Part shown: positions 5,023-40,826 of the stretch, in pieces
Layout of the letters: every line of letters begins with the position of its first letter
Position numbering within the stretch: position 1 is the stretch's first letter
NCBI GenBank assembly: GCA_010093995.1
Contig: ML992503.1
Coordinates: 62,001 to 117,668 of the forward strand
Direction of reading: 5' to 3'
Source: Elsinoe ampelina
Lineage: Eukaryota
DNA: 55,668 nt
Notes under the pieces: model-generated
The model's input: only the letters and a program-made list of their open reading frames with translations
The model's database searches: none
What the model was told of the DNA's origin: nothing
Program-made: the position numbers and the translations under genes

Positions 5023-5479
5023 ATGTATCTCTAACGTCTATCTACTAGCTATAAGTTTATAGTTCCTATTATAATAGTAGTTAATAAGATTATATATACT
5101 AACTTTCTTAAGGCCTATTTAAATATTTATAACTCTACTTTTAACTTCTTTAGTTAGATTAACGCCTTTAAATTAGCTAGTATTTAACCTCTCGATCTAA
5201 GCTATATACTTAACTACCTTAGCTAGCTTACTTCTTTATTATTATAACCTTATAAGAATAGCTCTCTACTAGAGACTACTCTCTTTATACTTTATAAGAC
5301 GCTACGCTCGAACTGTTACTTTAATTACTATCTCTACTAGCTATAGTAACTCGATTAAAGCCTTATAGAGGAGATATAGGAGAAGCTAAAGAAGAAGCTA
5401 GAACAATTACTAAGTACTAATACTCTTTTAATAAAGAGAATAAGTAATTTAGAGAAGTAAGTAAAGACAAAGAAGAAGT

Positions 5480-5683
5480 TAATTACAACTAGTAAGATAA
5501 AGAGGTTAATTATATCTATTCGTTAAGATATTAAGACTTAGAAGAAGAAGAAGAAAAGCTAGTATATAAAGCATATATAATATCGAGAGTAAAGCGGCCG
5601 AAAGTCTAAGTTATAATACTAAAATTACGTAACTAATCTAAACTAGATTCTAACTAAATCTAGTTTATATCTATCTTATATTA
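5480..5683 (-). repeat. 3' LTR of element 2
   Basis: Ungapped direct repeat of 11465-11668, adjacent to the PPT. Confidence 0.95.
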
Positions 5684-8600
5684 CTACTTTCCTTCTTAAG
5701 CGCGTTTACTCTTAAATACTATTATATATTATTTATTAATCTATTTCGGCCTTAGCTTATCCGTATAAGAGTCTAGATAGTTATATAGCACTTCGGCTAG
5801 TCCTTTAAGATTGTTAATTAGCTACTAGGTAAGATTCTCTAGATAGCTCTTCTAGCTTATATAAGTAACTAGCTTCTCTTATAGTAAGTATATATTAATT
5901 ATGTTATTTACCTTATACTTTTCCTTACTATTAATCTCTACTAGAGGTAGTTTCTTAAAGGCTTAGCCTAGTAGAGAGTTATTTAGATACTTAGTAAGGA
6001 GGTTAGCGTAGAATACGGAGTAAATCCTTTATAGTATAGCTAGTAGATCGAGCTTATATACTAATAGTAACTACTTTTTAAGGATTTTATAAGGACTAAT
6101 ATACTTTAGTAGTAGCTTTAGATTGCCTTATAGCTAGAGGTTCTTCGTTAATAGCTAAACTAAATTGCCTACCTTAAACTCTATTAGCTAGTAGTACTTA
6201 TTAGCTTATTCTACTATCCTTAATTAGGCAATAGCGAGGTTAGCCTTAGTAATAGCTAGTGCCTCTTCTAGTTGCTTAGTAAGTACGTAGATATCTACCT
6301 TATTTAGCTTAGCTCTTGTTAATAGCGCGTTAGAAGAGAGCTAGAAGCTTAGCTTTAGCTTATATCCTCTAGTAACCTCGAACGGTAATAGCTTAGTACT
6401 CTCTAATAGGTTAATATTAGTAGAGAATTCTACTACTAGTAGAACAAGTGTCTAATTACTAAAACGTGTAGCGTACGAATAAATAACTTACTTAAACTTA
6501 CAATTTATAACCTCTAATTAGCTATCTATTTATAGATACTCTATAGTAGATAGTTTAGTAGTAATCTTTAGGATTTAGTAGAGCCTCTTCTATACGTCGC
6601 TAACGAACTAAGGGCCGTAGTCCGAGGTAATACTATCTAGTAGACTATATAGTTTCTATACGTAGAAGAATAATAGCTTAGTAGTCTTAAACGCTAAAGT
6701 ACTATCTTCTCTAGAGAAGTATAAAATTAAGTACTATTCCTTAGATAGATAGTTAACGACATAGAGTACTATGTTATAGCTATCTACTAGAGATAGACTA
6801 GTAACAAAGTCTATAGTAATATATTACTATAGTCTTACCGGAATAGGTAATAGCGATAGAAGGCTAGCTAGTAAGCTATAGTAAGCCTTTAAGCGCTTAT
6901 AGTTATAATAGTTAGTAACGAACCTCTTAACGTTACTATTATATCTAGAGATATAAAAAGTAGACTTAATTATAGTAGCTGTTTTAGTAGCTCCTTCGTG
7001 TATATAATTCTTTAATATATAGACTTCTTAGATAACCTTTATAGCTATAGAGAAAGGTATAATTAGTTAGCTATCGGCCTATAGTATTCCCTTTTTAATC
7101 GTAATATTAGTTAATAGCAACTATTTCCTCTTTAGGAAGGCTTCTATTATATAGTAAATGCTATAAACTAACTTAAAGTTAGAGTCTTATAAGTTAGCTC
7201 TAGCTACTTTATTAAACAGTAGTAAAGATAGCTCTTCTAATGCTAAGATAAGTACTATATAGATGTCTAGCTTATAAGCCGAAATAGATAGTAAACTAGT
7301 TTATAAACTAGATGCTGAACTAGATCTTAGTTTAGCTTAAATTAGTAATTTAGTTTAGATACGACCTAGATTTAGTTCGTCGATAATACGCTAATCTAGC
7401 ACCTTATATAGTAATAGCGTCTAGTATAGATTAGAGTCTTCCTTTAAGTATAGTACGTCTCTATTCCTTCTTATAAGTACGTTAGCCTTACTATTAGCGG
7501 CGCTAGGCCTATATATAATCTTAAAGTTAAATTATATAAGGTAGAGAGCCTAGCACACTTAGTAGCGTAACAGCTTCTAAGTCTTTATAAAGTGTATTAA
7601 GGATTAGTAGTTAGTAAGAATATAGATAGCCTTATTAGATTAAGTACTTATAAGCTTAAGAGCCTACTCCTCGAAGGCTTAGATAATAGCTAGTAGTTCC
7701 TTATTATAGATAGTATAGTTACGTTCGGCTTTATTTATAGATTTACTAAAAAAGGTAATAGGCTAGAGAATATTAGACTTGTTATATTATAATAGAATTC
7801 TAGTAGTAGTAGTGTCGGAGGTATCTATCTTAAGGACTATCTATTTCGAGCGATTAAAGTGTATAAGGATAGGCGCGCTTATAATAGTATACTTTATATA
7901 ATTAAACATAGTAGTACACTTATCGTTCTATAGTATAGCGTCCTTCTTAAGTAGATTATTTAGCGGCTTAGCGATAGTACTAAATCCCTTAATAAAGTAA
8001 TAATAGTAGCTATAGAAGCTAATAAAGCTTCTTACCTAAGTAGTGTTACTAGAGGCTAGCTATTTCTACGCTTATATAGCTTCTACCTTCTTAGAATCTA
8101 TCTTAACTCTATCTCGGCTAATAATAATACTAAGGTACTTTACCTCTATTAGGTAGAACTTACTCTTCTTAATATTAGTATTTAGGCCTAATTTATAGAG
8201 CCTTTAGAGCACTAACTTAATATACTTAGTATGTTCTTAGTAAGAGCCGTTAGTATAGATAAGAATATTATTAAGATAGATTAATACGAAGCGCTCTAGT
8301 ATATCGACGAAGTTATAATTTATAAATCTCTACTATATAGTAGAGGCGTTAGTAAGGCCGAATAGTATTACTAGCTACTTAAAATTTCCTATGTGTATAA
8401 AGAACATAGTAAGGTCCTTACTATCGACGGAGTTATAAAGGCAGTAGAAGACTTAGTAGATATTAATCTTGCTAAACTACTTAGCTTTACTTACACGTAT
8501 AAGTGTTTCTTTAATAAGAGGTAATAGATAGATATCTCGCTTAGTTACCTTATTAAGGCTATAGTAATTAACGTAAAGACAGAGACTACTACTTAGCTTA

Positions 8601-11464
8601 TAAATAAAGAGAATAGGTAAGAAATAGCTAGCCGAGCTTAGTATAATAAAGCCTTTATTAAGGTACTTATAGATAAATAGCTCTACTATATCGAGCTTCT
8701 CTAGTAATAGATAGTAAAGAGGTTTAGTACGTAGTAGTTTAGCTCTATTCTTAAGTGTAATTTAATTGTTAAAATCTAGCCGATATAGAGAAAGCGTATT
8801 AGATTACTCTTTAGAGAAGATATTAGTAAACTCTCGTAGCTCCTCTAGGAGAACTACTATAGAGTCTAGTTCTAGCTTAGAGGCTATCTAGTAGTAGTTC
8901 TTAATATTCTTTACCAAGATTATAAACACCTTATTCTTTTAGTATTTAGCTACTAATACAAAGGTAGCGGCGCTAATAAAAGCGATAGTTAGCTCTTCTT
9001 ACTTAGTGTTACTTATATAGGTAAGTATATAGAAGAACTTATACATTAACTAAGTACTATAAGAGATTAGCTTAAACTCTCTCTAATTTAGCTTAAAGTT
9101 CGACCTAAAAGCTAGTAGTTAATATAGTCTAGTTCGTCCTAACTTAGTAGCTAAGCTAGAATCTAGTTTATAAGTTAAACTAGAACTAAACTAGTTCTAA
9201 ACTAGAGTAGTAGCTTTGCTAAGTTAGATTCCTAGATCCGAGCTAGGCTTAGACCTAGATTCTAGCCTTTTAATTAGCTATAGTAGCTCCTACTTAACAA
9301 CGACTAGTAAAAACTCTTCTTTGTATATAACTTAGCTATGCTTATAGTCGATAGTAGCCCTATTAGTCTTAAGCTAGCTAAGGCTAAGAATAATATTAAA
9401 ATAGCTAATATCTATAATATAGAAGGTAGTAAGAGCGTTTAGCTTACTAGAGATAGTAGTAGTAAAGAGAATACTATAAGTAACTTACTCTATTAGAATA
9501 CTATTATAAGCCTAAAGCTAAATAGAGCTAGCTAATACTACGGGGTAGCCGAAGCTCTTTAGCTTATTAAGGATATTATAATTAACTACGGCGCTAATAA
9601 GCGTGCTAGTATTAATAAAGGCTTAAAGCGTAATAGTATAAGAGTAGTTATAAGAGTCGTAAATAGTAATAGAAGTTATAATAGCGAGGATGTAGTAGCT
9701 AACGATACTATTTAATAACTATATACCTTCGGATCTATCTTAAATTACTCTTATTCTACTAGAGAATAGAGCTTATCCTTTAGCTACTTATTTCTCTAGC
9801 TAGAGAGGTTAGTAGACTTATAGTCTACTTTAGAGTTAAACTAAGGCTAAACTAGATTTAGTTTATAACTCGAACTAGTATTAACTTAGTTACTTAATTT
9901 AGCTAAGTAGTTCTAGAGCTATTATATCTCTTCTATAGCGCTAATATATATAGGGCGTATAGTAGCGTAAGTAGCCTTCTCTAAGGCGCTAGCTATATAC
10001 TTAGTAGAGATATAGCTAGGCTTACTACATGCGTAATAGGTAAGTATTAGAGCCGAATAGAAAGGCTATAGAGCTCCTCTAGTAATAGAGTAAAAGGTAG
10101 CTAAAGTAGTAGGTATAAAGGTAAAATAAGATATATAGATTAGTACTATAGTAGCGCGGCTTATAGCTAGGCTAGAGCGTAAGGCCTAAGTATACTTAGT
10201 AATAAGGTTACTCTATTAAATATTATAGTTAGTAGCGTAAGCCTTTATAATAAAGATAAAGAGACTATTAGTGTCGAAATTGACAAGGGCGGTATATAGC
10301 TTACTAGATATCTTCTAGTAGAGCTAGTAGAGTTATTTATCTTTAGTAATCTTAGCGTAGAGAGCGTACTTGTTAAACTTACTAATAAAGGAGTTAAAAG
10401 AAGTATTATACTAAAAGAGACTAGCGAACTAAGTGCGCGTAGTAGCCTTATAGTTAGAGTCTTTAAAGCGCTAGGCTAAGATACTAAGAGTAGCTTTAAT
10501 ATTAAGAGTGTTATTACTAGCAGAGTCTATAATAAGGATATATACTTCGCTAGAGAGATACAAATAGAGATAGGCAAACTAAGTAGCCTTAGTAGAGAAG
10601 TAGTTAGTGTTAGCACGTATCTTGTTCTTTATCTAGTGCTTAAAAACCTTAAACTATTCTAGAGTACTACTAGAGAAGATAGTAAGGTCTAGTATCTTTT
10701 TAAATAATATAGTACTATATATAGAGAAAGTAGGTATAGCGTGTCCTATCTCGGCTCTTAGCTAGGCTAGTTCGGCCTTAAGTTTACTAATATCTATAAG
10801 ATAGTGCGTAGTTTAGATAGTAAGATTATTAGTAGTGCTATTAGTAGTATCTAGTTCTACTAGAGCGTTATCTAACTAGTTATATAGATTAAGAGCGTTA
10901 GTATATACTAAGTTATATATAGTAACCTATTTGTTATAGGTAGACTTAATAAAGATAAAGGCCTTACGTAGAGTAGTTATTCTATCTATCTCTTATAGCC
11001 TCTTCTTAAGGTTAGTGTTACTAAGGCGAATAAGGTTATAATAGGCTAACTAGACTAGTTTATCGTTATTATTAGTAGAGAGTAGAGGGATCTTACTTAC
11101 GTAGTAATTATCTTCGCTATAGTTAGAGTAAGCTATACTTAGCATAGTTAGTCGTAGATAAATAGTATAAAAAGTTAATACGTAACAAAGGAAATATTAA
11201 AATTTTTTAGCTAGTAGCCTACTTCCTTTAGAAGTTGTCTATAACTCGACTTATTACCTTCTTCTTATATCTTCGAGGTTTATAGTATTAACCTATATAG
11301 TAGTAGCGAGGATCTATTATAATGTACATAGGAACTATAGTTGTAATAGCTTCTTCTTTAATTCTTTATAAGTAGTAGTTATTAGTAGTTACGTAAGTAG
11401 TAGAATAACTAGATAATTTAATAGCTCTATTACTTAGTCGTAGTTGTATAAAGTCTCGATATAG

Positions 11465-11668
11465 TAATTACAACTAGTAAGATAAAGAGATTAATTGTGT
11501 CTATTTATTAAAATATTAAGACTTAGAAGAAGAAGAAGAAAAGCTAGTATATAAAGCATATATAATATTAAGAGCGAAGCAGCTAGAAGCCTAGGCTATA
11601 ATACTAAGATTATATAACTAATCTAAACTAGATCCTAACTAAATCTAGTTTATATCTATCTTATATTA
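11465..11668 (-). repeat. 5' LTR of element 2
   Basis: Ungapped direct repeat of 5480-5683, followed by TSD GAAGT. Confidence 0.95.
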
Positions 11669-12500
11669 GAAGTAGCTAAGAAGTACTATAAAGATAAACG
11701 CTTAAGTACTTAAAGTTAAAGAACTAATAAAGAAGTACTAGTAATTAGAGTAACTCTACTAGCTTAAGGAAGCTATATACTAAGCTTATATTAATTATTA
11801 AGGTACTTATAAAGAGCTTATAAACTATAAGTCTCTTCTTAGCTATTAAGATCTATAAACTAAAGCTACTATTACTACTTATAAGTAGCTTAGAGAGTAA
11901 TACCTTACTATAGTTTATAGGCGTAATAAGTTTAAAAAGAGTATTAATTTAGCCTCTTAATCTAGTACTTAATCTAGTGCTTAATCTAGTACTTAATCGA
12001 TAGAGAGGCTAGCTAAAAAGAGGCAGTATATAAACTCTTCTATAAACTCCTTATACTAATCTTTACCTTCTTTATTATAACCTTCTCTAGTACTACTGTC
12101 TTTTATTATACCTCTCTAGCCTTAATAGTCTCTAGTCTTTTCTTTCTTCTTTCTAGTACTACCTTTTATACTATTACTACTCTCTCTAGTAATACTAGCT
12201 TATTCTTTAGCCTTACTAACTCCTCTCCCTTTGATTTTATAACTCTTACCTTAGTTGTAAAGAGCTTAGAGACTACTATAGAAAGTAGTTAGCTAGAGTA
12301 CTTAGAGTACTTAGCCTTTAAGTACTTAGCTATTAAGCACTTAAAGCACTTAGCTTCTAGAAGTGCTAGATAGTTAAGAGTCACAAATAACGCCTTTGTA
12401 CAATAGCTAGTAGTAGATTAAGCCTATTATACCTTTTTTAAGCTTCAATTTCAAGCCTCTAAAGAGCAAGCCTATACTACCTTTTTCTAGCTTTAAGTCT
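11669..12500. mobile_element. Unidentified RIPped repeat (continuous with 5023-5479, the target of element 2)
   Basis: RIP-type composition on both sides of the element 2 TSD. No recognisable protein motif. RIP signal fades at ~12380-12520. Confidence 0.5.
11956..11998. repeat. 12-bp tandem repeat (CTTAATCTAGTR x3.6)
   Basis: Read directly from the sequence. Confidence 0.9.
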
Positions 12501-17784: not shown

Positions 17785-20177
17785 CTACAGCTTAGCCATA
17801 GCACGGAGGTCCCAGGCAGCTGCAAACGATGCAGGTGAGTGTGGATCCCAGTTATTCACGACCTCGATAATCACTTTGAACGTTGGACCTGGAACATTGT
17901 CCCACAGCACCTTCTCGACATTGTCTGTGAACCACTATTAGCTCTTTGATGACACAAGAAATCTCTAAACTATGCCAGGAGAGGGGAGAGGAGAAAGGGT
18001 GAGGCCACGTACTAATGTTATCGAAAGTATTGCCGCCATTGCGGCCCATGTTCCCGTGACGAGCCTCTCCGCCTGACACAACGATCAAGTTCATCGAATT
18101 TTGTAGTGCTGCTCCGGCGGGATCCGGATAGGCGAGGGTGACGACAAGTCGACTTCGTCCAAGACCAGCTGGAATCGCAATTTCGCCGCTCTCCCATCGC
18201 CTCTCGGACTCTGACCCGGTCTGGATCAGCCCTGGCACGTCGAAGCGGGTGCTGTCGCTCCCACTGCTTCTGCCGTCCACGAATGTCCCGTTCCGTATCA
18301 TGGCAAGGGAGCTGTCGATAACGACGCGACCAAAACCTTGTTCGTAATCGTAGCCGAATCCAGGTCCCAACTTGCCCGAGAAGTTGACCGCTCCGTTGAC
18401 AAGCAGTGCCTTGATCAGAGCGGCGCTCGGACGCTTGCTGCCATATAGATCTTCTATAGCTTCCCGCATGAGGGCGACACAACCGGCGACAAGTGGAGTT
18501 GCCATGCTAAAAGTGGAGAGATGGTCAGTCTTGGTCTCGCATTGTACAAATCGTGGATGTACTTACCTTGTCCCAGACATGAATAGCCAGTCCTTATCAC
18601 CAGATTCGCCAAACTTCTGGTGTAACCAATCGCCCAACGGCAAGGCCCGAGACGCAGCGGACAAGATGGCCACGCCGGGCGCGACGATATCGGGCTTGAT
18701 TCGACCTTTGCCTCCGACCTGGCCACCGATGCTTGTCGGAGGTCGCACTGGCCCGCGGCTGCTGAACACGGCAGTGTCATTGATGCCAGTGATTGGCTTA
18801 GCACCAGCGTCCTGTACGAATCTACGGCCATCGTTAGGCCTGCTTGATCCACACGCACCCACCGTGATAGCGTTCTTCGCAGCGGCAGCGGCACCAAGCT
18901 GGCTGGGCCATCGTGCCGGATCTCTTGGCATATCGCCGTTGTTGGCCGCAGCAATGAGGATGATGAAGTCCTCGTGATGTGGCGCCAGTACCGCGCTTGT
19001 CGGTTCGGAGACATCACCATTCGAAGGCAAGCTGAGTGGTGGTATTTCTCCGTAGACGAAACGATCCATTTGAGTGGCTTGATCCTCATAGTCGTATTGT
19101 CCGATCTTATCGGACCACTCTTTGCCCCAAGAGTTGCTATGAATGCGGATACCCTCGTTGTATGCCGACTCGAACAAACGGTTTACTTCCGAGGGCAATA
19201 CGAGTTTCTTGAGTTTCGGATTACTGGGGAGCGGCTTGCTCAGTGACTGAACCAGTATCCTTGCACCAGGTGCGGTGCCCTGGATCGTTATGTCACCCCT
19301 GGTTACGTGCTTGTAGATGCCACTTCCACAGATAGAAGCGCACACATGGGTTCCGTGGCCATTAGTATCATTTCCGTCGTCCCCACGCCAAGGGGTATCA
19401 ACACGAATGATGCGGTCTTTGAATGCAGGGTGTGCCTCGACTCCAGGCAAGATCTTCGTGCCCGTACCAAGGTCGAAGCCCGTGTCGGCAACGCAGATGA
19501 TCTGACCCGCACCAGTATATGTCGATGAGGTCAAGTTTACAGCCCCATCTCCGGCCGTCAACAATGTGCCGCGAGCGAAGTCGTTGACAATAGCATCCTC
19601 GTAGACTTGCTCGATGCGATTGATGAAATCGAGCTTAGTAAGAGCCTCCAGCCTTTCTCCATTCATGACGACTCGGACCTTGTTGCTACTGATCTCGAGA
19701 TCATCCGGGTCAACTTGCGCGGCCTCGGCAATCTGCGCCGCGACTTGACGGGCGATGATATTTGGGGCTTGATGAAGAATACAGTCGACCACGTAATCTT
19801 CCTTGACGTTCTCATCATCAATGGCTTTTTTGAGGGCGATAGTACTCTTCAGCTCGCGCAGATATCTGTCGAGGAAGAAGCCCGTTAGCGCTCCAGTCGA
19901 GCCGGAAGACTGTCTCTACTTACATGCTCACTTCCAGGATATATGTTTTGTCTCGCAAAGGTTGCAGGTCGTGAGGCTCGTACCGGCACAGATATGTGTT
20001 GTTTCCAAGATACTCAATAAGTTGAGCACCAGTCTTGACTATATCATTTTTCTGGCTCGGATCAAGCGGTCTTTTAGTCTGAACGAGAATAAAATCTGTC
20101 TTCTCAGCTGTACGAGGTACATAGGAAGGCAGATCCTCCGGCACAACTTTGTTGCCATTGACCAAGAATGGTGCCAT
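17785..20177 (-). CDS. S8 subtilisin-like serine protease, KP43-type, no signal peptide
   Basis: Triad motifs ICVADTG, GHGTHV, SGTS|MATP. Also IHSNSWG, FSSRGP, IKPDIVAPG, QGFG and C-terminal beta domain NNVEKV. Introns 19866-19923, 18507-18566 and 17925-18012 all restore the frame. Confidence 0.93.
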
Positions 20178-21201: not shown

Positions 21202-22389
21202 TCATAGAACGTGATCATTCGCTGGTGTTGCGTCCTTGTCAATAGGGAAGATATCTTGGTCAAGGAATCTCTTCACGCCGTCGTCACCATCCCAGCTTCT
21301 GCCTGTGGACCACATGGTGCCTAATGCAACGCACTTATCGACTGCATCGCGACAGCCAAGTAGGCCATTCCACTGGTCAAGATTGCTCAGATTGCTAGGT
21401 TCGGGAATTCCATCGGATGGATGATCATAATGCGCATGCTGGCTGTCGTTCTGACCAAAATAGGTGTGAAAGTTGAGAATCGCGCCCCAGCGGTCAATTG
21501 TGCCAGGCTTGTAGGTCAAGGGATCTATTATCTCAGTAAGCCCGACTTGGCCGGCCACAACCTCGATCACTGGACGCTCAAGCTTGCTGCAATTCTGGAA
21601 AACATGGAACAACTTACTTGTGCTCGCCTGATCTTGCTTGTTCAGAGGGACTCGCTGCGCATGTCCTATAGCATAAGAGTCCTGGATGACGTGGAACATG
21701 CTTCCTAGCGCTCGCCGGCGGAAGTCTAGAGCAGAGAATTCCGACTTGGGCGCCAACATATAGCTCAAAGGCTGGAACCTCGGCGGCACGGAACCGCCAG
21801 ATACATCGGGTGGTGAGGCAAGGAGATGTCCCAGTTTGGTGTCCTTGACTAAGGTATGTGGTTCAATTTCTCCGGTTGACAGCTTGTACATGACCTCCAT
21901 CCATATCATGACCCTGGATTTCGTCTGTTCCGGGTGCTCGCCTGCAGCAGATGCCATGCAGTGTAAGAACTGCATGTCGCCATAATGCGAGCGTCCAATA
22001 ACGTTGTAGAAGCGATCCCCGGAAAGTTCCCTCGGGTTCCAGTCTGAGGCGCCCATCTTGTACTTGGCAACCCACTGCGCACCTGAGGCGTATGAATGAT
22101 TGGTGCCGTATGAGTCGTTAAACAACAGGCCGGCTGGATCGTCATTCCAGATGACACCACGAACAAACTCCCAGGTGGCGTTGTCGGCGGAATCCAGTGT
22201 AGTATCACGCGCTACACCGCTGTTGGCGACGTTTGTAAGGGCAGACAGCGTTAGGGACTCATGGATCGGGGTATGGAAGAGACCGCCCGGGCCGCCGGCG
22301 ACAGCCATCGCTGGCTCGACCTCAGTTCCCTCATCATCCTCACTGAAACTGAGTTTGACGGCATTGGGGGCGCGCATAGTGGTAGCCAT
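21202..22389 (-). CDS. Hypothetical protein, putative trinuclear-Zn phospholipase C/P1-nuclease-fold enzyme (~364 aa)
   Basis: Long ORF with a probable in-frame 93-bp intron 21525-21617. Motifs FHTPIHE, WNDDP, RSHYGD..FLH, HVIQDSYAIGH, HAHYD. No signal peptide. The gene is well supported and the fold is inferred. Confidence 0.75.
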   Translation of the reverse strand: MATTMRAPNAVKLSFSEDDEGTEVEPAMAVAGGPGGLFHTPIHESLTLSALTNVANSGVARDTTLDSADNATWEFVRGVIWNDDPAGLLFNDSYGTNHSYASGAQWVAKYKMGASDWNPRELSGDRFYNVIGRSHYGDMQFLHCMASAAGEHPEQTKSRVMIWMEVMYKLSTGEIEPHTLVKDTKLGHLLASPPDVSGGSVPPRFQPLSYMLAPKSEFSALDFRRRALGSMFHVIQDSYAIGHAQRVPLNKQDQASTSKLFHVFQNCSKLERPVIEVVAGQVGLTEIIDPLTYKPGTIDRWGAILNFHTYFGQNDSQHAHYDHPSDGIPEPSNLSNLDQWNGLLGCRDAVDKCVALGTMWSTGRSWDGDDGVKRFLDQDIFPIDKDATPANDHVL

Positions 22390-23641
22390 TGTGCTTGATC
22401 AGAGATGGAATTGAAGTGATCGAGAGGTCATGACCAAAATACAGCGAGTATGAATACTTGGGGAGATGAGACTCCTTACAGCTGTCGAGCACGTGACTGC
22501 ATTCGCGTTCGCCTCGTGCCGCCATGTGTGTGTCTGGCAGTTTACCATGGTGTTACCCGACAGTTTTACCCGACATGGGAACCCTGCACAGCCTGCATGA
22601 CGCTACCAAGTCGGACTGTGCTTCTCATGTTTGCACAGCTCATCAAAAGGACAAGGTGCCCAGAGCGCAGCGAAACCACTTCTACCGTATCAAACGGCCC
22701 CCGCGAGCGGCATCGGACCGTACCACACGCAACCATCCCCCAGCATTTAGACCTCCTGCTGTCAACTGTCGCCAATTGTCAGACATCGACACCAGAACAG
22801 CTGAAGCCTGATCCAATTTGTCAATACCTAACGAGGATTCAGGGGGTTCAAATCCACTTGACTGCGTCCAACGCAAGCTTGGAGAACTCCGCGGAAGAGA
22901 CGCACGATGCAGGGCGATTCAAAGTCATATCCGGTCGCTTCCTGTCGAGGTCTTGCGAGTTTGCATACACTAATCCACTTAGGTGCTCAGGCGAAGGCCG
23001 CTTTACGCCAGCCACACGAGGATGATCTGCACGTCTCGTTGACTCCTTTCCCGAATGAGACACAATACTCCACAATAGATTCTCTATACACGTAATTGAA
23101 GCTCGTGCCGCAATTCGACATTGATCAGGGCTACTGTACACACCACCAGCTTTCACTCTGCACATGTACGCTGGACTTGGGTAGTCGCGGCCGAATGAGT
23201 TTACTACTAACCCTTGCCCCTGCGTGGCTCGGGCTTGTTTCTCCTGTTACGCACCTCTATATCGTGCAGATGCACCTCAGCTGGGTCAGTACAGGTAACA
23301 CAGACCCCAGTGGATGTCTTTGTGGCATCGCTGTCGTCAGCCTAGGAACCTTCACAATCACCGTCCAAAAGAGGCGACCGTGGACCCTATCAGACTACAG
23401 ACAAGCACGGCGAGAGATCCACACATCGGCTAGTCCGACAACAGTCGACCCCTACAGAGAGCTCACGACGTTTGTGCTGCATGGTGGGCAACATGGACAC
23501 CAGACGGTGTGTTTCTGCATGTGCTCCATGTCTGCATATGAGTACATCATTTGCATAGATGTACATTGTCCTCGTCACTCAGATGTCGTTTAGCCGACAA
23601 AGACTTGAAGACCATATGAGTACCTCTCCTGTTTCTTTGTC

Positions 23642-23786: not shown

Positions 23787-24239
23787 ATGTCTACTACCAC
23801 TACCACCACTACTCAGCAGAAGGAAGTCCCTGCTAATGCCGAAGTTGGCTGGCAGGTGCTTTCGAACGACCAGGGCACCAAGTACCGGGTCAAGGCTGAG
23901 GAGTACGACCTCGCCGAGGAGTCTGCTTCCTCGGACGCTCCTGCCGCAAGCGGTCCTCCTTTCAAGGACGTCAAAGTTACCTGGAGGTTCGGTACCGAGG
24001 GAGCCCCGGACAAGGACGTGCAGGAGCAGACGTCTATCACGTGGTACAAGTTGGCCAAGGCCCCTTGGTACTCACCTTACACGTACGAGTTGACCATTGT
24101 CGCCAAAGACACGTACAACTTCAAGTTCACCGACATGGAGCCCGACACCTACTCCCTCGATGTCTACCAGAACGCCGGTAGCCACTACGTGCAGTACAGC
24201 TCCAAGAACCCTACCATCGTCAGCATCTCCGGCTCCTAG
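23787..24239 (+). CDS. Small hypothetical beta-strand-rich protein (150 aa), no signal peptide
   Basis: Intronless ORF with strong C/G-ending codon bias, CATCATG start context and an upstream TATA. Alternating aromatic/polar strands (YELTIV, YNFKFTD, YSLDVY, HYVQYSS). Confidence 0.85.
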   Translation: MSTTTTTTTQQKEVPANAEVGWQVLSNDQGTKYRVKAEEYDLAEESASSDAPAASGPPFKDVKVTWRFGTEGAPDKDVQEQTSITWYKLAKAPWYSPYTYELTIVAKDTYNFKFTDMEPDTYSLDVYQNAGSHYVQYSSKNPTIVSISGS

Positions 24240-24708: not shown

Positions 24709-27369
24709 CTACTTTCTTGAAAGCAATCTACTGATACTTTTCCTCTTTCCACTGCCAATGCTCGCCATTGATCCGAAACTTTCACTCTGACGCGGCCGAG
24801 AAGGTGATATCGGACTTACAAAGGAAACGCTGGTAGGACTCCTCGGCGAAGTCGCCGGCGATGCACGTCCAGAGTCTTCGCTGTCTGAAATGATGCCGCT
24901 CGAATGTCTACTGATGAGGGTCTTGATGTATGGAGATGTGTCGGAACATCGCGCCCATTCGATCTCGCTGGGATGACCACCAGCGAGCCAGGCACGAACA
25001 AACTTCTCGTTTCTCTTGACGATGGCGACTTCAAGAGGACTGAGGCCCGCACTGTTCTGTAGTGATAGTGTCGCACCGGCACGAATCAGAATGTCGGCAA
25101 GACGGAATTCGCCTTTCTCGGCCGCTGCATGTAGGCCGGTATCGCCATAGGTATTGCGTGCATCCACATTGGCTCTTCGAGGATTGTTGAGAAGCGTGAA
25201 CAAGACTCGATCGTGATTGCCGTGAATAGCGAAGTGAATGGCAGTCCATCCGTCAGCGCCAGCCAGGTTGGGATTGGCACGAGAGTCGAGCAAGAGCTGG
25301 ATGATGTTGAGGTGACCGTACTGGGCAGCAATATGCAAAGCACATTCCCTTGACTGGCTCATCAGATCCGGTTTGACGTCTTTCTCCTTGAGCAGAACAT
25401 GAACGATTTGATGCTTTGCAAACCTTGTGGCCTCGTGGAGGGCAAGCCTGACGAGATCCTCGGGCTGCCCAGATCGTTCGAGAAGGCTTGAGACAGTGCG
25501 CACATCGTCTCGGCGGATAGCTATGCGGAGATCTCTTTGAGCTGCTTTCGGATCAAGGTGGATCTTCGAGTCGTCTGTGGCGCCAGCCACGCACGAGTAA
25601 GTACCGTATAGAGGATCGCCTTGAGCGCTGTCGCTTCGAGTAGTCCAAGGAGCTAGATCCGGTGAATCACTCGACAGCGTCATGGACGGACGAAGTGGAG
25701 CGCCTCCAGAGACCGATTCGACCCTTGACATGGAGCTCCTTGGAGAGACCGAACTCAACGAGGGTGAACTGACTGCACGGTAGGTACTTGGTGCCGGCTG
25801 AGCTCCGATATATAGCTTCCAGTAAACCTCTCGGTGAAGTGTCTTCTCCTGAGCATCGTAGATCTTGAGAAGTAGATCCACAGTGTCAAGGAACTTCGGG
25901 TCTGATGTCGATGCAAAGTGTCTTCTGAGCTTAAAGGCCCTCTTAGCATCACGTTCGGCCACTTCCAAGAGATGCTCGCTGTCGAGACCGTGCTCTTTGT
26001 TGTATTGATATCGGTCATGGTTACCTCTGGAAAGACCTTGGTACTGGATGGCGGCCCTCAGTGCCTTTGACGGGTCTGAGTACTTTTCTGTGAAAGACTT
26101 CTGCTTGACGGGAGAGGCCGGCACGTATTCTGTGTCACCGCGGAGCAGTGCATGTCGGATCCCTTGTGCTTGGTCGTGCTGCTGCTGATTCTCGAGAATG
26201 TCCGCGAGGGTGGTCTGATAGTCCTCGTAGTCAGTAAAAGGCTTGCCGTGGCCGTTGTGTCGCTCCTGGAGGAGAGCTATGGCTTCACGTTGGTGTCTCT
26301 CCGCCTGATTGTACCACCCTTTCTGCATGTCCTCGGCGGCCTGTTGAGTGAGGCGCTCGATCAAAGCTTCCAATGGTTCGAGGTGAGTGGTATCGTCAAA
26401 GTCGGGTGTTGGATCGGCTCGAATGGGGTCCTCTGGCGCAAGAGACAAGCTCGAGGGTGACATGATGGAAGAAGGGTTACGCGGGCGGTTGTACTGAGCT
26501 GAGACGAACGGATCTGCTCTCGCCAGCTCGTCACGTGCGCTTTCAGACATTGTGGTATCGCTGTGCTTGTCCGAGAATGCTTTGACACTGGAGGCTCGGT
26601 GGACATCGACTGCCTGACCAATGACTCTGCGGAAGTCCTTCTCAATGGTCTCCTCATCTTCCGCAATGATGTTCTCTACCTTGACGAGCTCGTCGAGACC
26701 AATGGCAGAGTCATTGGGGTGCTGGCTTCTCTGGTCGCTTGCTTGAGACCTAACCGTCTCACGAGCTTGCTTGAAGACCTCGATGTTTCCCTGGCTCTTG
26801 CTGATCTGTGCGGAGAGGTGGCGGAGGGAGTCGAGAATTTCTGCTTGATTGCCGACATTCATGAGTCTGAGTCATGTCAGTAGTGATGGATCAGGCAGGG
26901 AGGGTGTGCCTTACACTTCATGACATGCTAATGAAACCTGCATCATCTGCAAACGAGTGTCTATAAAGTTCTCGAATCGTCGAATCGCTGCATCGCGTTT
27001 GTCCAGCTGCAGCTGCAGCAATGTCTTGCCGAGCCAGGATGGATGGGAAGGATCTCTGAGCAGGCCTTCAAGAGAGGTTTCGAATTGTTCGAGCACGCGA
27101 GTGCATACAGCAATGTCCTTGGACAGTGTCCTTCTCACCCGCTTTTCTTCATCGTTCAGTGGTCTGCGGGAGAGTGACTCGTTGCGGAGGTTGATGACGG
27201 ATTTGATCGTCTTGATGGTAGTCCATAGCGATTCGACCTTGTCCCTGAGTTCCTTTGCGGCAGTGTCGGCAGTCTTTGCATTGTTGACAAAGTCGCACAG
27301 TGTTTGGAATAGGCGTAGGGCGATATCGGCTAGTTGTACGGTCGACGAGGCCACCGCGAATGCCTCCAT
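24709..27369 (-). CDS. HeLo-like/SesA-type N-terminal domain + TPR-like + ankyrin-repeat protein (~870 aa)
   Basis: N-terminus MEAFAVASSTVQLADIALRLFQTLCDFV..AKTAD...ELRDKVESL is typical of the fungal STAND N-terminal (HeLo-like) domain. Ankyrin repeats ALHIAAQYGH, GWTAIHFA, GDTGLHAAAEKG. Intron 26867-26914 joins the two ORFs in frame. Confidence 0.85.
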
Positions 27370-33306: not shown

Positions 33307-34392
33307 TCATGCCTTGAGTGCCTTCTTCACACCTCCCAAGAATCCGCTGTTGGCCATAGCCTGGCTCAGGTCCCAAGACATGACTCCGCCGAAGCTCGAG
33401 AATTGCTTGCAGTAGTTGATGATCGGTCGCAGGTCGGCGACGCTCTTATACCCGCTTCCAGCTGCAGTGGGACCGGCAGGGACGCCGAGGAAGATCTTGA
33501 CGACCTTCTTCTTGGAAACAGTCTTAGCGTAAGCGTCCCAGGTCTCATAGTTGAAGTTGTTCTGCGTCGAAGTCCCGCTGGTGAAGGATTGCAGGCCGCA
33601 GTAATTGTTGTAGAATTGGACGAAGATGGCATCGAAGCCGACATTTGCCAGCATCGGTCCCACTGCGTGGTCTGGGTAAGGACATTGAGGAGCGGCAGTG
33701 AGATAAAACTTCTTGGCTGTGCTCTTGTTCATGAGCGTCCGAAGGCGTTGAGCAAAGGCGACACTGTTGGTCATGGTGGTCTCCATGTCCATGTCGAAAC
33801 CGTCGATGACTGCATTGCCGAATGGACGAAGTTCGCTGGAGCCAGTCTGCTTGGGACCGAACATGGCCCAGAGCTTGTCGGCCCATGCTTTGGCGGTGGC
33901 ATTGTTGCTGAAACCGCCTTCGCCATATGTGGCACCACCAATGGATAACAGAATGGTTTTGCCGTACTGATTCTGACAGGTCTTTATGTCTTTCGTGATA
34001 TTCGGGCATTTGATCAGTTGAGTGCCAGGGAAAACGCCACAGCCATTTTGCTGGTTCGCAAAATTCAGGACCGGTTCGCCCCCTGGACCCGAAGTCATCT
34101 GGGTCAAGAAGGCCATGGGGATAATGTCGACATTGGAATCTGTACTTGTCAGAAACGTTCGCTCGGAAATCTAGGGGAGATTACTTCTGCAGTAGGTCGC
34201 GAGGCTCTGCTGTGAAAGATTACCGGTCCCTTGTCCATAAGAGTTTTGACCTGCGGAAGTGTAAGTCTTTGACGTTTACTTTCAATGGCCCTACTTACCC
34301 CAATACACAGCGACATTAGTGTTTGCGGTCGAGGAAAAGCCGGCGAGCGCGAGCGGTAGGCTGGCGAGCAGTAAAGATGACAAGGCGATCAT
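33307..34392 (-). CDS. Secreted GH18 chitinase, class III (Cts1/hevamine-like)
   Basis: Signal peptide MIALSSLLLASLPLALA, then VAVYW|GQNS, LLSIGGA, catalytic DGFDMDME, AAPQCPYPD, VQFYNNYC, GGVMSWD. Two short 5' introns. Confidence 0.93.
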
Positions 34393-35657
34393 GATGCTAC
34401 TAAGGAACGACTGGAGCCACTTTGGACTTTGGATTTGAAGCAGTAGTGATATAGAAAGACATTATACCTACACGGCAAGGACAGCCACGCAAGTCTCCCA
34501 CGCCTATTGACATTATTATCGAGGCCGTTGAGCTCAGCCTGCGTGGCACGGGAGCTGCCATGGAAGATCATTTTACTTGGAATGAGACCGTTGAGTGGGT
34601 AAACAACGACTTTGCGTGAGGCAATGCTTACATCAGACATCAGAATTGAGGTTTCTTCGTCAGTATCCATGGAGAGACATGTCACGAGTCCATCTCCAGG
34701 TTTATTATAAAGTCGTTGTCGGCGCGCAGAGCATAATAGTTTATGGGTGACTTTCGCCACCCGCCGCCACTGCTCAATATGGGGTGGGGGACGGCATTGT
34801 AAGAGTGGTACAGATACCGAGCCGGAGATCCGGTCGCAGATCTTGTGGTGATAGCGAAGGAGAAGACGGGAGAGCCGTGTGACTTTAGGGTTGAATGATA
34901 TTAAATTGCAGAGACCACAAACCTGTCAGCCCTGGAGTATTTTTGTTCTGCGGCAACCTCAGCACGTCCACGGAACGAGAAATTGCTCTTCGGGCCGACA
35001 AAGCGATCTCCCACGCAGAAGATCTCGAGCTTTTTTTTCTCGACTTTTCCTCTCATCTTCACGGCCGTGCAGCTCTGCTGGCTTCATCTCTTGGATAGCC
35101 GATGGTTCATTCGACGCTCTGGAACTTTGCCTATTACCATGGCTAATATCGCATCTTGTTCAAGACTGTTTGACCAACTCTCTACACCCTCGGGTCTTCC
35201 GGCTACCCTGCGTCACAGCATTGTGCCCTTCATTAGGGCCCAATTTAGAGCAAGCACAATGCTTGTGCAAGGGAGGGAGTTGGTGCCCATACAAGTTCGT
35301 AACGAACCAATCATTATACGCGTAATACCAGCTGTGTCCAGGATCAAGATAGAAAGAGCAGGAGGTTATTTCCTTGTAGACGATCCAGCCTGGTCCCTCC
35401 ATCTACGCCATCTGACTGTGCCCTCCTGTAATTTTGAGTTGCCGATGGTGTTTGCTGATCCAGTGGTCCTTCGCATGGACACGGGCAGTCACCTATGGTT
35501 CCCCATAAACAATTGTAGGTTTCGCTGCTTTCTTTAGATCTCTTGTCTCGAACCTGAAGGTTCTTATGAGCCATCAGAACTGCAGAAGTGGTATCACCGT
35601 CACCTCCAGTGGCCTGCAAATTATACCAGTCGTTTCTCGAACATCCACTACTAAGCC

Positions 35658-37624
35658 ATGGTATCCCTTCGAGGAGTACTCACCGCAGCCTTGCTGGCAG
35701 CTACCTCGCTCGCTGAGCTCTTCACCCATGACGAGACCTTCACGCCGGACTATGTTCTCGAGGCGACCCTACAATCTATCAAGATCAGCTGCAACGTTCG
35801 AGAGTCTGTCGTGATCAACGGCACCTCACCCGGTCCAACGATTCGGCTCAAAGAAGGGGAGACCACTTGGATCAGAGTGTGGAACAGAATCGCCGCAGAC
35901 AATTTCACAGTGGTAAGTCTGACCAGCAATCTCATGTCCTGTGTTAACCCTCCAAGCATTGGCATGGATTAACACAAAGGACTGCGCCATTCTCGGATGG
36001 GACACCACTTGTAGCTCAGTGGCCAATCCCGCAGGACCACTTCTTCGACTACGAGATCCACCCAGAAATTGGAGACGCCGGCTCATATTTCTACCACTCT
36101 CACGTCGGTTTCCAACAGTCTACTGCCCATGGAATCTTGATTGTCGATGATGCTGATGAAAAGCCATACGAGTACGATGGCGATATACCCTTGATATTTG
36201 GCGACTACTATGCCAAAGGCGACGAAGATATTGTCCATGGTCTACTTGCAGATCCGTTCAAGTGGTCAGGCGAGCCGAACAACGTACTCCTCAATGGCCA
36301 AAGCGGAAATGTCTCCTCGACTGCCACATCTGATCCTTCTTGCGCACCACATGTAATCGAAGTCGAGCCGGACAAAGAGTATAGGATACGAGTCATTGGA
36401 GCTACAGCAATTTCTTTCATGAAGGCGGTCCTCGAAGGGCACTCACAGCTCAAGGTCATCGAGGCAGACGGTCAGTACACCAAGCGGGCATCCATCGACC
36501 ATATCCAGGTCTCACCAGGGCAGCGGTTCAGCTATCTGCTCAAGACAAAGTGTCTGGACGACCTGAAGCAGTCTAACAAGACCGACTTCTGGATCAGATA
36601 TGAGTCTCGCGATCGTCCGACGAGTATCAAGGGTTATGCAATCCTTCGATACAAGTTGCCAAATCGACAGCTGCCTCTTCCCGAGCTTCCCGAGACTTCC
36701 CCAGTTCAGGTGCCCAATACCACCTACAATTATCTCGAGTACAAGCTTGAGTCTCATTCGCACAAAAGCCGAAAGAACTTCCCTCGTCTTTCTGAAGTGA
36801 CCAGGACCGTCACGATCCAGATGAACCAAATGCTCCGCACTGGCTCTCTTGTCAACGGTTCCTTACAAGGCGTCGTCGAATGGGCGTAAGTGCATCCTAA
36901 TCCCTTCCCACGTCGCAACACTAATCCATCCAGACAAAACGGTGACTCCTGGAAAGAAAACGTCCAGGCTCTCTCCCCCCGCCCACCTTACCTCGTCGAT
37001 GTCTTCACCACCGGCACCGTCCCCAACTACACCGCCGCCATCGCCAACAAAGGCCTCGATCCAGTCACCAATACCTGGCCCGCCATGGTCGGCGAAGTCC
37101 TCGACATAGTATGGCTGTCCAACTCCGGTCCCACAGGCGGCTTCGACTTCCACCCCATGCACATCCACGGCGAACACATCTACGACCTTGGCTCGGGGAA
37201 CGGGACATACAACGCTGCTGAAAACGAGAAGCGATTCAAGAACTTCACCCCTGCGAAGAGGGACACGACTGTTCTCTACCGATACACGGTCAAGGGGGAA
37301 AAGCCCTTCACCACCGCTGGGTGGCGGGCATGGCGCATTCGCATCACCGAAGAGAACGTCGGTGCTTGGATGGCCCATTGTCACGTCGCTCAGCACGCCG
37401 TGATGGGAATGAATACGGTGTGGGTGTACGGGGATGCGAAGGCGTTGTTGACAAAATTCCCCTCTGTGCCTTATATCCAGGGATACCTGGATTTTGGAGG
37501 CAGTGCCTTTGGGAAGGAGGGCCAGCCTCCGGTCGTGAACCATCATTTCGATACTGAGGATGGGAGTGGAAAGGCGCCAGATGACGAGGGTCATGGCCGT
37601 GGGCATGCAGACCCGGGCAATTGA
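35658..37624 (+). CDS. Secreted multicopper oxidase (AA1, ascorbate-oxidase-like)
   Basis: Signal peptide and the four Cu motifs V|HWHG, YHSH, HPMHIHG, HCHVAQHAVMGM. Introns ~35913-35957 and ~36886-36933. Confidence 0.93.
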
Positions 37625-37838
37625 GTTCTAGTGGCCGCGGAGAGCACTTCGGCTATGATACTAATCATACTCTTACCATGTCGTTTACTTTCCGGGATCC
37701 GACTGTGATCACATACTGTCGGTCCCTCATGCCGGAAGCCTTGAGTCATTGCGGTCGTGTTCCGGCACTGTGACGGCACTGCATTGCGTGGTACGTACCA
37801 GTTGTGCCTTCCTCAGTGCTAAAACTGATTGTTCCCGC

Positions 37839-38999
37839 TCACTTCTTGCTGAAAAGTGCTCGATGACTATGCGCAACTAGACTCCGCTCCCCTGTCGCAT
37901 CTCCGACACCAGTCCAATAGAAAACACCACCTAGACCTTGGGCTTTGACATACTCGCACTTGATGACTACAGTCTCCGGAACATCATAGGAGACGAAGCC
38001 GCCCTCCTGACCTGTGCAGTATGCTGCCACCCTGTCACGTTGCACCTGCTCCTTCATATCGGGCAATGGCAGATCCCGATACAAAACTGTGCCATCGCCA
38101 CCACCAGAGGCCTTACTAGGCTTGCCCGGACTGTCGACATCGGCAAACGATCGACCGTAAGCTGGTATACCCATAACGATTTTATTCGCCGGGATCCCCT
38201 GGGTGATGGCGAAAGAGATCGCAGTGTGAGCAGACCGCGCATCGTACGGGTTTTGCGGGGTCGTGCTTGAGTATAGCTGTGAGTGATACCCAGAAACGCC
38301 GGTCCAAGGCCCGACGAAGTCGTAGCACATGAGGTTGAGATTGTCCAGGACGGACCCTACGCGAGCCAACGGGACGTTTCGTAAGCACCATTCGCCAGCT
38401 GGTAAGGCGGCACTGAGCTTGTAGCGAGGTACAGGGAGGGAATTGCGGAGAGCCTGGACGAGAGCCAAAAAGTCCCTGCCTTGCTCGAGACTACTGGGAT
38501 GCTCCCAGTCGAGGTCGATTCCGTCGAATCCGTATTGGTCGACCCAAGATCTACACGAAGTTGCAAATTGTTCTCTTCCAGTCGAAGTAGAGGCGAGAGC
38601 TGGAAAGTGAGCGCTGCCACTTCCTCCTCCGACGCTGAGCATCAATTGGAGGCGCTCGTGAGTTGTCGCCTTGGCCAGCCGGAGGGCGCTCAGGCATCCC
38701 TTCGTTCCATCTACGGAAATGTCGAGGTCGGCCTTCTTATCAAGGTGCTGTTCAAGCGTCAGGTCTGTGTTGAACGAGGATGAGCCAAGGTCAGACCGTC
38801 AAGGTGCCATCCTCGTTTAAGCTGTCACCTGTTAGTGACATGCTACTCGTCCATTGCGATTCCCGTACCGCACGAATGCATATTAGATACGATTCAAGAG
38901 GTCGAGCCTCATAGAGCTAGGAGTCTCCCCCTTGTAGACCCGCCAGCTGGGATAGTATGCGCCGTGCACATACGACGAGATATCATCGGAGACATCCAT
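37839..38999 (-). pseudogene. Cytoplasmic GH18 chitinase (class V-like) with a premature stop at codon 39
   Basis: ATG 38999 reads MDVSDDISSYVHGAYYPSWRVY...LNRI*YAFVR with TAA at 38883-38885. Two introns follow, then LSVGGG, catalytic DGIDLDWEHP, NLMCYDF, YGRSF, GGVFYW. A sequencing error cannot be excluded. Confidence 0.75.
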
Positions 39000-39552
39000 G
39001 TTCACACCCTCGTTTCCAAGGATGAACACCGGGGGTTAAGGACGCATGCCTGTAGTAGACTGCCGACGATTGGTCTTTCCGTCAGGTTGAGACAATCTGT
39101 TGACTTGTGGATAAGTGTTCAGTAGTTCACCCTTGGGATGAACTGAATCAGGGTCTTTCTTGGTACTCATGCTTGTACCGAGGTTGACACAATCGCCACT
39201 CCACGTGCTCGATGCGATTTCGGGGATACTGTACCCATGGGACCGATGGTATAGGCAGCGTTGCATCCGCTCGACCCGCAAAACGTTCCATAGAACAACA
39301 GGGACGATCGCTAAACGCCATCTTTCCAGGAAGTGAGACATCTACCGGACCATGTTCTAGGCGGCAGGAGACCTTCATCAGATAATCTCTGGTCCTTACG
39401 ACACAGCATGGACGGATTGCCGTCCTCGTCCCGGCCATCCCCTGCCCAGACTATCTTGGTATCGTCCACAGTGGCGATCATGGTATCTCTTATGAGTACA
39501 GGGCATCGGCGCGAGATGGCGCTCGGTAGTCATTTTGAGATTGCTGGAAGTC

Positions 39553-40826
39553 ATGTACACCCGATCTGTGATATTGCCTCTTGCTGCCATTTGCGTTGTC
39601 ATTGTTGATAGTAGGTACACGTACAACGAGGAGAGGCCAGAAGCTGACCTAGCTCAGAAGCTCTTGCATCAAATTGCAATTGTGGTTTTAGCATCAACCG
39701 CAGAGACGGGACCTCGTCGCCGGCCTATTTTTCACAAGTCCTCGAGACCGACTTCCTTCATCTCAGAAGTTTCTCGACGGCGCCTGACTGGGACAAAAAG
39801 CATGGCAACAAAGACTGGACTGTGCAAGTCTTCAACAAGACTTCCTCCCAAACTCGCGGTCCATACGGCAAGGCAGCCACTCTCCAAAACACAATCAAGA
39901 ACCCTATCGATGAGCTCGACACCTGGTCCGGAGATGGGATTCGTGGTCGGGATCCAGGACTCCAACTCGTCACATCGCCCCTTTCAGACTCACTGCCTGC
40001 TCCCGATGGAGGCCCTCCCATGATCAAGTCCGGCGAGATTGCCACCGTCCGCTCCGATATCCTCTATGGCAGCTTTCGAGCGGGGCTCAAAATGACTGGT
40101 GTGAACGGCACATGTGGCGCCTTCTTCTGGTATCGCAACGACAGCGCCGAGATCGACATTGAGTCGCTATCCCGCCAACTCCAAGTGGACAGCAAGAACA
40201 AGACAGTCGCCGGCCTGACCAACATCGTTATACAATCTCCTCAATCAGTCGCGCAGGGCTTCGACGCGGCCGGTACTCCAGGGTACCAAGTCGCCGCCCT
40301 ACTATTCGACCCGACAGAGGGCTACCATGAGTACCGCTTCGACTGGCTCCCTGGCTCCGTAGCATTCTACGCCGACGGCCAGCATCTCGGCACCCTCACC
40401 TCCTCAGTGCCTAGTGATCCCGGCAAGATCCTACTCAGCCACTGGAGCAACGGCGGGGCAGGCTGGTCCGGAGGCCCACCTCCCGAACCTGCAGTCATGA
40501 CTGTTAGCTACGTCAAAGCGTACTTCAACTCTAGCGACGCAGCCACGAACCAGAAGACGGATGAAAGGTGTGCTGCTGCTAAGACAGATGTCTGTACTGT
40601 CCCAGAGTGGTCCGGGTCCATCGATCCCACACAGACGGATAGTCAGAGTTTGTCCTCGGATAGTCCGTTTTTGACGAACCCGAATCAGACGCCAGGGTCG
40701 TTACAGACTGGGTCTGCGAGTGGGTCTTACGTCAGTGCCGCAGAAAGGGTGGCGATGGCTGGGAGGTCTGTGAGCTTGCTGCTTCTGGGCTTTCTGCTTT
40801 CAGCTGTTCAGGGATGGTTCTGGTAA
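39553..40826 (+). CDS. GH16 glycoside hydrolase/transglycosylase, probably GPI-anchored
   Basis: Signal peptide, intron 39611-39657, then CNCG..LETDF, YGSFRA, catalytic EIDIE, YHEYRFDW, HWSNG. Ser/Thr linker and hydrophobic C-terminal tail. Confidence 0.9.

Follow-up and report, generated by a model that had tools for sequence, protein, structure and literature searches.

A proposed subtilase-armed zymogen trio with a zinc phosphoesterase of the phospholipase C/S1-P1 nuclease fold in Elsinoe ampelina

The stretch of Elsinoe ampelina DNA analysed here (the window, 55,668 nucleotides of contig ML992503.1) carries genes with introns, bordered on both sides by AT-rich sequence whose dinucleotide ratios are RIP-like. 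These flanks (1-12200 and 54100-55668) have about 30% GC, no long ORFs and TpA/ApT values of 2.09 and 1.94; they probably represent decayed repeats that enclose a gene island of 42 kb. A group of closely spaced genes at 33307-42806 comprises two for GH18 chitinases, one for a multicopper oxidase, a GH16 gene and one of the chitin-synthase-2 type. The present analysis concerns three other genes, which encode a protein here called the effector, a subtilase and a 150-aa protein (Table 1). The subtilase gene starts 1025 bases downstream of the effector gene and the gene for the 150-aa protein starts divergently 1398 bases upstream. The trio is adjoined in this genome by a gene on the reverse strand (24709-27369) encoding an ankyrin-repeat protein with a PigL_N-like N-terminal exon, which resembles fungal NLR-associated proteins. 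This gene was considered as a sensor and dropped, since the fungal loci do not have it next to the effector, apart from one weak match at locus L111. We derived by computation how the effector gene is built and transcribed, how its product folds, how far the ligands are conserved, where the N-terminus falls and how the clustering is conserved.

Table 1. Features of the three-gene cluster (positions in the window)
Feature	Position	Strand	Details
Effector gene, pro-form of a PLC/S1-P1-fold zinc phosphoesterase	21202..22389	-	exons 22389-21618 and 21524-21202; 364 aa
In-frame 93-nt GT-AG intron of the effector gene	21525..21617	-	joint 21524/21618 in 4/4 runs
Effector leader, 27 aa, acidic, disordered, ending G-T-E-V-E-P-A; putative pro-peptide	22309..22389	-	pLDDT <50 for residues 1-26
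Met28 codon, predicted mature N-terminus (Trp1 equivalent)	22306..22308	-	structural alignments, homologues, signal-peptide ends
150-aa protein, flexible N-terminal part and beta-sandwich (residues 57-150); third conserved cluster member	23787..24239	+	
KP-43-like S8 subtilase, 728 aa; putative activator	17785..20177	-	Pfam Peptidase_S8, E 1e-24
Subtilase introns, three	19866-19923, 18507-18566, 17925-18012	-	spliced joints

The effector ORF (22389-21202) has 395 open codons when its intron is read through, and 31 of these residues form an insertion that is missing in all 26 other rows of a 27-row alignment. Spliced contigs were obtained from four sequencing runs whose RNA origin is a guess, none being on record as RNA. 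Transcript-like contigs of the effector extend 5' to 22424-22478, past Met1, and one ends at 21070 with a poly(A)-type tail. In the same runs spliced or transcript-like contigs cover all three genes of the trio, with the three introns of the subtilase removed; read depth in these runs cannot rank the genes by expression. The effector is a real, spliced and transcribed fungal gene. It has a single match within its own genome, and among named relatives the ORF comes closest to a hypothetical protein from Elsinoe fawcettii (95% identity), which differs at 20 of 395 positions and at none of the ligands described below. A second strain shows seven coding differences in the effector, three of which change the residue, versus three in the twice-longer subtilase, and the effector is possibly evolving faster.

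No family was found for the effector in Pfam, NCBIfam or PADLOC, and a PDB sequence search with the protein and with its family alignment gave no match at E 10. The AlphaFold2 model (pLDDT 86) gave zero Foldseek matches at E 0.001, a check that the initial annotation had proposed for the fold. In an exhaustive structural alignment, the six best matches of the model were the Zn-PC-PLCs of Clostridium (1olp, Z 9.3), B. cereus (1ah7, 8.4) and Listeria (8cqm, 7.7), giving a range of Z 7.7-9.3, and the S1/P1-type nucleases 8qjl (7.8), 5fb9 (7.5) and 3w52 (7.0), with a range of 7.0-7.8. They aligned with an rmsd of 3.7-4.3 over 159-169 residues and the following match reached only Z 3.4, so that the PLC/nuclease fold proposed from sequence is borne out. 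Values of Z 7-9 with an rmsd of about 4 A over about 167 residues are modest for a helical protein; nevertheless the membership of the modelled protein in the PLC/S1-P1 nuclease superfamily is firm because the near-invariant set of His and Asp residues agrees with it. The PLC and nuclease scores are nearly tied, and therefore the fold does not decide between a lipid and a nucleic-acid substrate.

The His and Asp motifs pointed out initially are indeed present. In an alignment of 121 proteins (ORF numbering) H43, H135, H233, D237 and H243 were found in 121/121 and D83, D84 and H143 in 120/121. H318 and D322 were scored in the 27-row alignment, in which they do not vary, since many rows of the larger alignment stop at the intron, without this region; in the spliced product they form H287-x3-D291 (HAHYD). 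The assignment of single ligands is based on motif spacing and on the PLC/P1 reference numbering. The H-x3-D-x5-H motif is shared with both Zn-PC-PLCs and S1/P1 nucleases. On the reference numberings of PLC and P1, the distance from the N-terminus to the first His is PLC-like and the terminal H-x3-D is P1-like, and the last metal ligand, Asp in the effector, is Glu in Zn-PLC. Unlike S1/P1 nucleases, the effector has no signal peptide, has its first His 15 and not 5 residues from the start and is about 100 residues longer.

Sequence models of the neighbouring families do not capture this protein. Pfam Zn_dep_PLPC (PF00882) did not match the effector and reached two of 97 family members at E 0.021 or worse, below the curated cut-off; two bacterial members scored 13 bits against 26.8. 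The S1-P1 nuclease model had no match among the 97 at E 0.1, and no Het-C or VWA7_N match was found in Pfam for the effector or the 97 members; the spacing in the 27-row alignment is H-x3-D-x5-H and not the HxxxDxxxH signature given in PMC3482391. No gasdermin model matches the effector and its predicted fold is also different. A family profile search collected 1119 clusters at 50% identity (E 0.001). The family is unnamed and has no Pfam model.

Het-C is predicted to share the PLC/P1 fold, and Tox-HET-C is listed among polymorphic toxin domains (Zhang et al., PMC3482391, accessible part). By that prediction Het-C, VWA7_N and Tox-HET-C would fall in the same superfamily as the effector, and the domain occurs there as a toxin domain on carriers. 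Feature neighbours of the effector in the Atlas carry VWA7_N or Het-C, which we treat as a lead only. Het-C is a membrane or secreted het protein, whereas the effector is neither.

Five of the six structural alignments start at model residue 28. It stands opposite chain residue 1 of 1ah7, 1olp and 3w52, and opposite residue 21 of 5fb9 and residue 27 of 8qjl, which we take to be the mature first residues; the sixth alignment (8cqm) starts at model residue 39 against chain residue 10. Since the alignments start there, Met28 is the equivalent of Trp1. Residues 28-37 are conserved and ordered, and an M/F/Y-x-I/V-x-G motif begins at Met28, ten residues before Phe38. The same column marks the N-terminus of relatives with other architectures. 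The signal peptides of P0069, P0098, P0099 and P0115 terminate there, P0120 has a KR|F junction, most bacterial relatives have a signal peptide ending A-x-A|F/W/H/Y (read by eye), and three proteins start with Met at this position. In eCIS_core fusions Q-R or H-R directly precedes the column, with a junction Q-R|Y/F/W, and several C70-fused proteins have a G|Y/F junction; no clear junction was seen at the column in the C70 fusions P0254, P0280 and L095. The relatives thus appear, from their sequences, to expose the same N-terminus by means of signal peptides, fused C70 proteases or eCIS_core carriers. Met28 is the predicted position of the mature N-terminus and, once freed, would bind metal. 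The need for N-terminal processing that had been put forward is supported and the zymogen logic stands, with a leader of 27 aa instead of the 37 aa first assumed, given alignments that begin at residue 28.

The leaders were surveyed in 49 of 50 close-clade proteins, those in which the anchor was found. Relative to the predicted cut, P7 is Gly in 34, P5 is Glu in 37, P4 is Val in 37 and P2 is Pro in 23 (Pro, Ala or Thr in 40), while P1 varies (M, A, Q, N, K, D); P1' is Met in 40 of the 49 and Phe in nine. The resulting motif is G-x-E-V-x-P-x|M/F, and the leader is net acidic in 44 of the 49. The motif was not found in the 44 of 67 distant proteins in which the anchor was located. No hydrophobic signal stretch occurs in any of the 49 leaders (10-residue Kyte-Doolittle maximum <2.0), in agreement with the absence of a signal peptide noted for the effector at the outset. 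Subtilases prefer a hydrophobic P4 and a small P2, as conserved in these leaders.

The subtilase has intact catalytic triad motifs (D212/H255/S518) and its homologues carry the name kp-43 peptidase. The N-termini of the homologues gave no evident signal peptide, and a Pfam search gave no repeat-type sensor domain. In six annotated assemblies from five species (Fusarium sarcochroum, Xylographa, Stylonectria, Neonectria and two of Aureobasidium) the locus tags of the effector and S8 genes follow one another directly. The small gene lies next to the effector gene in Microdochium nivale and Plectosphaerella; in the latter the best S8 match lies on a different contig from these two. When pairing is taken as both genes on equally long contigs, 16 of 39 close-clade effectors (contigs of at least 5 kb) pair with S8 among the matches listed, versus 0 of 54 in distant clades; the other 23 are unpaired among the best 120 of 427 S8 matches, the set used throughout. 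Across the 16 pairs the effector and S8 identity matrices are correlated (rho 0.85, 0/5000 permutations), which can equally come from shared species history.

Nine close-clade loci from metagenomes were also inspected. All three genes are present in the five contigs with room downstream, four of which look closely related and not independent; of the other four, two carry the small gene but break off early, and the remaining two are of insufficient length. One locus (L086) has the small gene on the same strand. A quick tree of 99 rows places the S8-linked rows on one side of a branch (SH-aLRT 100) and groups the effector with Microdochium and Plectosphaerella proteins at 60-66% identity. Transfer of the trio between lineages is possible. 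Linkage to S8 is restricted to the clade with the leader motif of the effector. The trio is conserved across several ascomycete classes, and the conserved S8 neighbour lends support to the subtilase as the likely activator named in the initial annotation.

Ten homologues were aligned with the 150-aa protein. No signal peptide and no NCBIfam or PADLOC model was found for it; Foldseek gave nothing at E 0.001 and the Atlas search no usable match. Its best fold matches are ToxA (Z 5.6, rmsd 3.1, 77 residues aligned), tied with TRAF and Ig-like folds, and SIX8 (Z 5.3). A profile comparison indicated that the effector family and this family are unrelated. An acidic linker of the protein ends P-A-A|S-G-P before the folded domain and could be a second subtilase site. 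In the trio it may serve as a cofactor, inhibitor, sensor or second substrate.

The N-terminal classes of bacterial relatives, assigned by eye in the best 80 of 153 members from GTDB genomes, comprise 64 signal-peptide forms (a few uncertain), six eCIS_core fusions and ten forms with a pro-segment, including two that are also signal-like (L012 has both a signal-like stretch and a pro-segment), one cut by the contig end and one on a neighbourless contig. Among up to four nearest ORFs (278 in all), an S8, C14, CHAT, C25, C70 or trypsin domain lies near six of the ten pro-segment loci versus four of the 64 signal loci in this set (Fisher p 0.0002, or 0.0013 with three other peptidases counted; the statistics ignore kinship). 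Two loci of Myxococcota (L007:1678-11063 and L039:398-6945) encode, besides a leader-bearing family member, a gasdermin (NF051890), the former with CHAT and the latter with two S8 proteases; they are candidate multi-effector death islands.

Other architectures were also noticed in the family. Proteins of 1000-2200 aa (L094:763-7212, L095:3723-8987, P0248, P0249, P0254, P0256, P0258, P0268) combine an N-terminal part that has no annotation with an AvrRpt2-like C70 protease and, at the C-terminus, the effector-family domain, and are likely self-processing toxins. At L002:551-7059 the C70 long protein (C70 match E 8e-7, outside the cut-off of the neighbour scan) and the effector-family domain are separate genes. 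A fungal clade (P0070, P0071, P0074, P0242, P0244, P0251, P0253) has at least one unannotated beta-rich domain before the same junction; in P0070/P0242/P0074-type relatives it may be aegerolysin-like, but no aegerolysin Pfam match was found at E 1. Leaderless members of Fulvia and Cercospora (P0100, P0101, P0105) start M-F/Y-I-G, and their second residue would presumably keep the initiator Met; judged by these sequences, they are possibly active without processing. Secreted bacterial members often adjoin defence-type genes, namely an AAA-S8 pair, restriction-modification, SAVED/cyclase, OLD-UvrD, SLOG-TIR and RloB (loci L031, L037, L044, L048, L059, L061, L064-L066, L075, L077).

We propose that the cluster is a subtilase-armed zymogen trio in which the zinc phosphoesterase is a conflict effector, a reading to which we give a probability of roughly 0.58. 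The effector would be made as an inactive cytoplasmic pro-enzyme. As in PC-PLC, binding of the third metal requires a free first residue, so the 27-residue leader would keep the metal site incomplete. After a trigger, the neighbouring signal-less S8 subtilase would cut V-E-P-A|M28 (Ala27|Met28), and the freed Met28 would complete a trinuclear site with H43, D84 (or D83), H135, H233, D237, H243, H287 and D291. The released enzyme would hydrolyse membrane phospholipids or nucleic acid and, most simply, kill the compromised hyphal compartment, like gasdermin after HET-Q2 cleavage. Cleavage by the cluster subtilase is quite probable and a defence role is favoured; a lipid substrate has slightly better than an even chance, and nucleic acid somewhat less than one. 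The whole trio appears to be transcribed in the same samples, so a brake must exist, for which the pro-domain of the subtilase and the small protein are candidates.

The closest parallel to this switch is Listeria PC-PLC, for which the accessible part of PMC10576769 reports that main-chain atoms of W1 bind metal 3 with W1F tolerated, that one added N-terminal residue abolishes activity and that a 26-aa pro-peptide is cut off by a protease. A pro-peptide of 26-27 aa, blocking activity in PC-PLC (same source), would do so in the effector, whose first residue is likewise a predicted metal ligand. Unlike Zn-PC-PLC, the effector is eukaryotic and cytoplasmic, has 13% identity and begins with Met/Phe instead of Trp; its activating partner would be an S8 protease and not a metalloprotease.

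In its gene arrangement the trio resembles fungal gasdermin clusters. About 80% of fungal gasdermins cluster with S8 or CHAT proteases, and in HET-Q1/HET-Q2 and het-Q2-like S8 clusters the effector gene lies, as here, with an S8 gene (Clave et al., PMC8851545, accessible part). A short inhibitory terminal peptide, a clade-specific protease and a two- or three-gene cluster are further common features, as far as that part describes them. Unlike gasdermin clusters, the effector would be an enzyme and not a pore former, its predicted inhibitory piece is N-terminal, there is a third small gene, and no sensor repeats were found on the protease of the trio. Bacterial protease-effector modules with an MBL nuclease, alpha/beta hydrolase, Pepco or EACC1 are described in the accessible parts of bioRxiv 2025.11.14.688446 and 2025.07.28.667249; they have in common with the trio a latent hydrolase freed by a linked protease of exchangeable class. 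They differ in fold and host, and in that an insertion is removed whereas here a metal-binding N-terminus would be created.

The same zymogen and protease might instead be aimed outward, as a stored cytoplasmic toxin that is armed on hyphal wounding, lysis or feeding and acts on fungivores, bacteria, rival fungi or host tissue and not on the producing cell. Signal-less fungal anti-predator proteins do exist. Moreover, relatives of the effector are secreted, carried on eCIS_core domains or placed behind C70 proteases in long proteins, and the top fold matches of the 150-aa protein, weak and tied, are ToxA and SIX8. The related Tox-HET-C also stands among polymorphic toxins (PMC3482391, accessible part). 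We nevertheless consider this reading unlikely, if a serious one: none of the three proteins has a signal peptide or delivery domain, homologous clusters occur not only in pathogens but also in lichen fungi and Aureobasidium, which argues against a plant-specific target, and the gasdermin neighbours in bacteria suggest self-killing. Self-killing is favoured because of this lack of export signals together with the gasdermin parallels.

A housekeeping role, with a protease-gated phosphoesterase recycling the phosphate of phospholipids or nucleic acids in autolysis or starvation, is improbable. S1/P1 nucleases and PLCs often scavenge phosphate, and chitinase-family genes occur in the same window. 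However, the distribution is patchy, with the effector grouping with proteins of Microdochium and Plectosphaerella as given above, the genome has one copy, and bacterial relatives have toxin-type fusions and defence-type neighbours.

Still less probable is that the subtilase merely co-travels, with translation starting at Met28 by leaky scanning or an unrelated protease removing the leader. Most close homologues do have Met at the column (40 of 49), and the leaderless clade starting M-F/Y-I-G exists. But Phe, found in the remaining nine, is unable to start translation, and its presence together with the conservation of the upstream motif (P7 Gly, P5 Glu, P4 Val) argues against plain initiation at Met28. 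Transcript-like contigs contain Met1, methionine aminopeptidase would remove an initiator Met before Ala or Ser, and only the clade that has the leader motif shows the S8 link.

Cleavage at GGL|F with Phe38 as the mature N-terminus, as the initial annotation had it, reproduces, with F38-x4-H43, the W1-x4-H6 spacing given for nuclease P1 and would use Leu, a common P1 of subtilases, yet it is very improbable, since among 121 proteins that column holds I (30), V (22), K (16) and F (13), as well as L or E, the preceding residue is not conserved, and residues 28-37 are conserved, ordered and included in structural alignments that begin at 28. Moreover, the distance from the first residue to the first His is 15 in the effector and longer in bacterial secreted forms (a distance of 11 in seven rows is a regex artefact), so the P1 spacing is not applicable. 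A delta1-37 construct would lose the metal-binding N-terminus, should be dead and would give a false negative.

Our literature search, covering mainly open-access articles in their main text, turned up no description of the effector family or of the trio. The words 'phospholipase', 'nuclease' and 'KP-43' are absent from the main text of PMC8851545 as far as accessible, and 'phospholipase' and 'fung' from the accessible parts of bioRxiv 2025.11.14.688446 and 2025.07.28.667249. No such effector appears in the portion covered of a 2025 review of fungal cell death (PMC12881547), nor a Het-C or PLC-fold toxin in that of an eCIS toxin paper (PMC11297309). Protease-gated clusters being already known, what is new here is such an effector cluster with an unnamed PLC/S1-P1-fold enzyme.

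More tentatively, the subtilase-armed trio may be a fungal regulated-cell-death or wound-defence circuit, with a trinuclear-zinc executioner, the 150-aa protein as guard or second substrate, and one 'neo-N-terminus switch' common to bacteria and fungi. If this is true, the executioner would be neither a pore nor a TIR/HET enzyme and would be armed by creating its own N-terminal metal ligand, and the same domain, on eCIS carriers and in bacterial gasdermin islands, would serve as an effector that is activated by proteases and can be exchanged. One chemical switch, the freed N-terminal amine, would then recur with partners of the signal peptidase, Kex2-like, C70, trypsin, caspase-like and S8 types, and the exact cut site that is predicted makes the idea testable. 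Protease-triggered death in fungi is so far known via gasdermins; an executioner that is an enzyme and is controlled by a clustered subtilase would be a new kind of output, and the KP-43-like subtilases that ascomycetes have without a signal peptide would gain a role.
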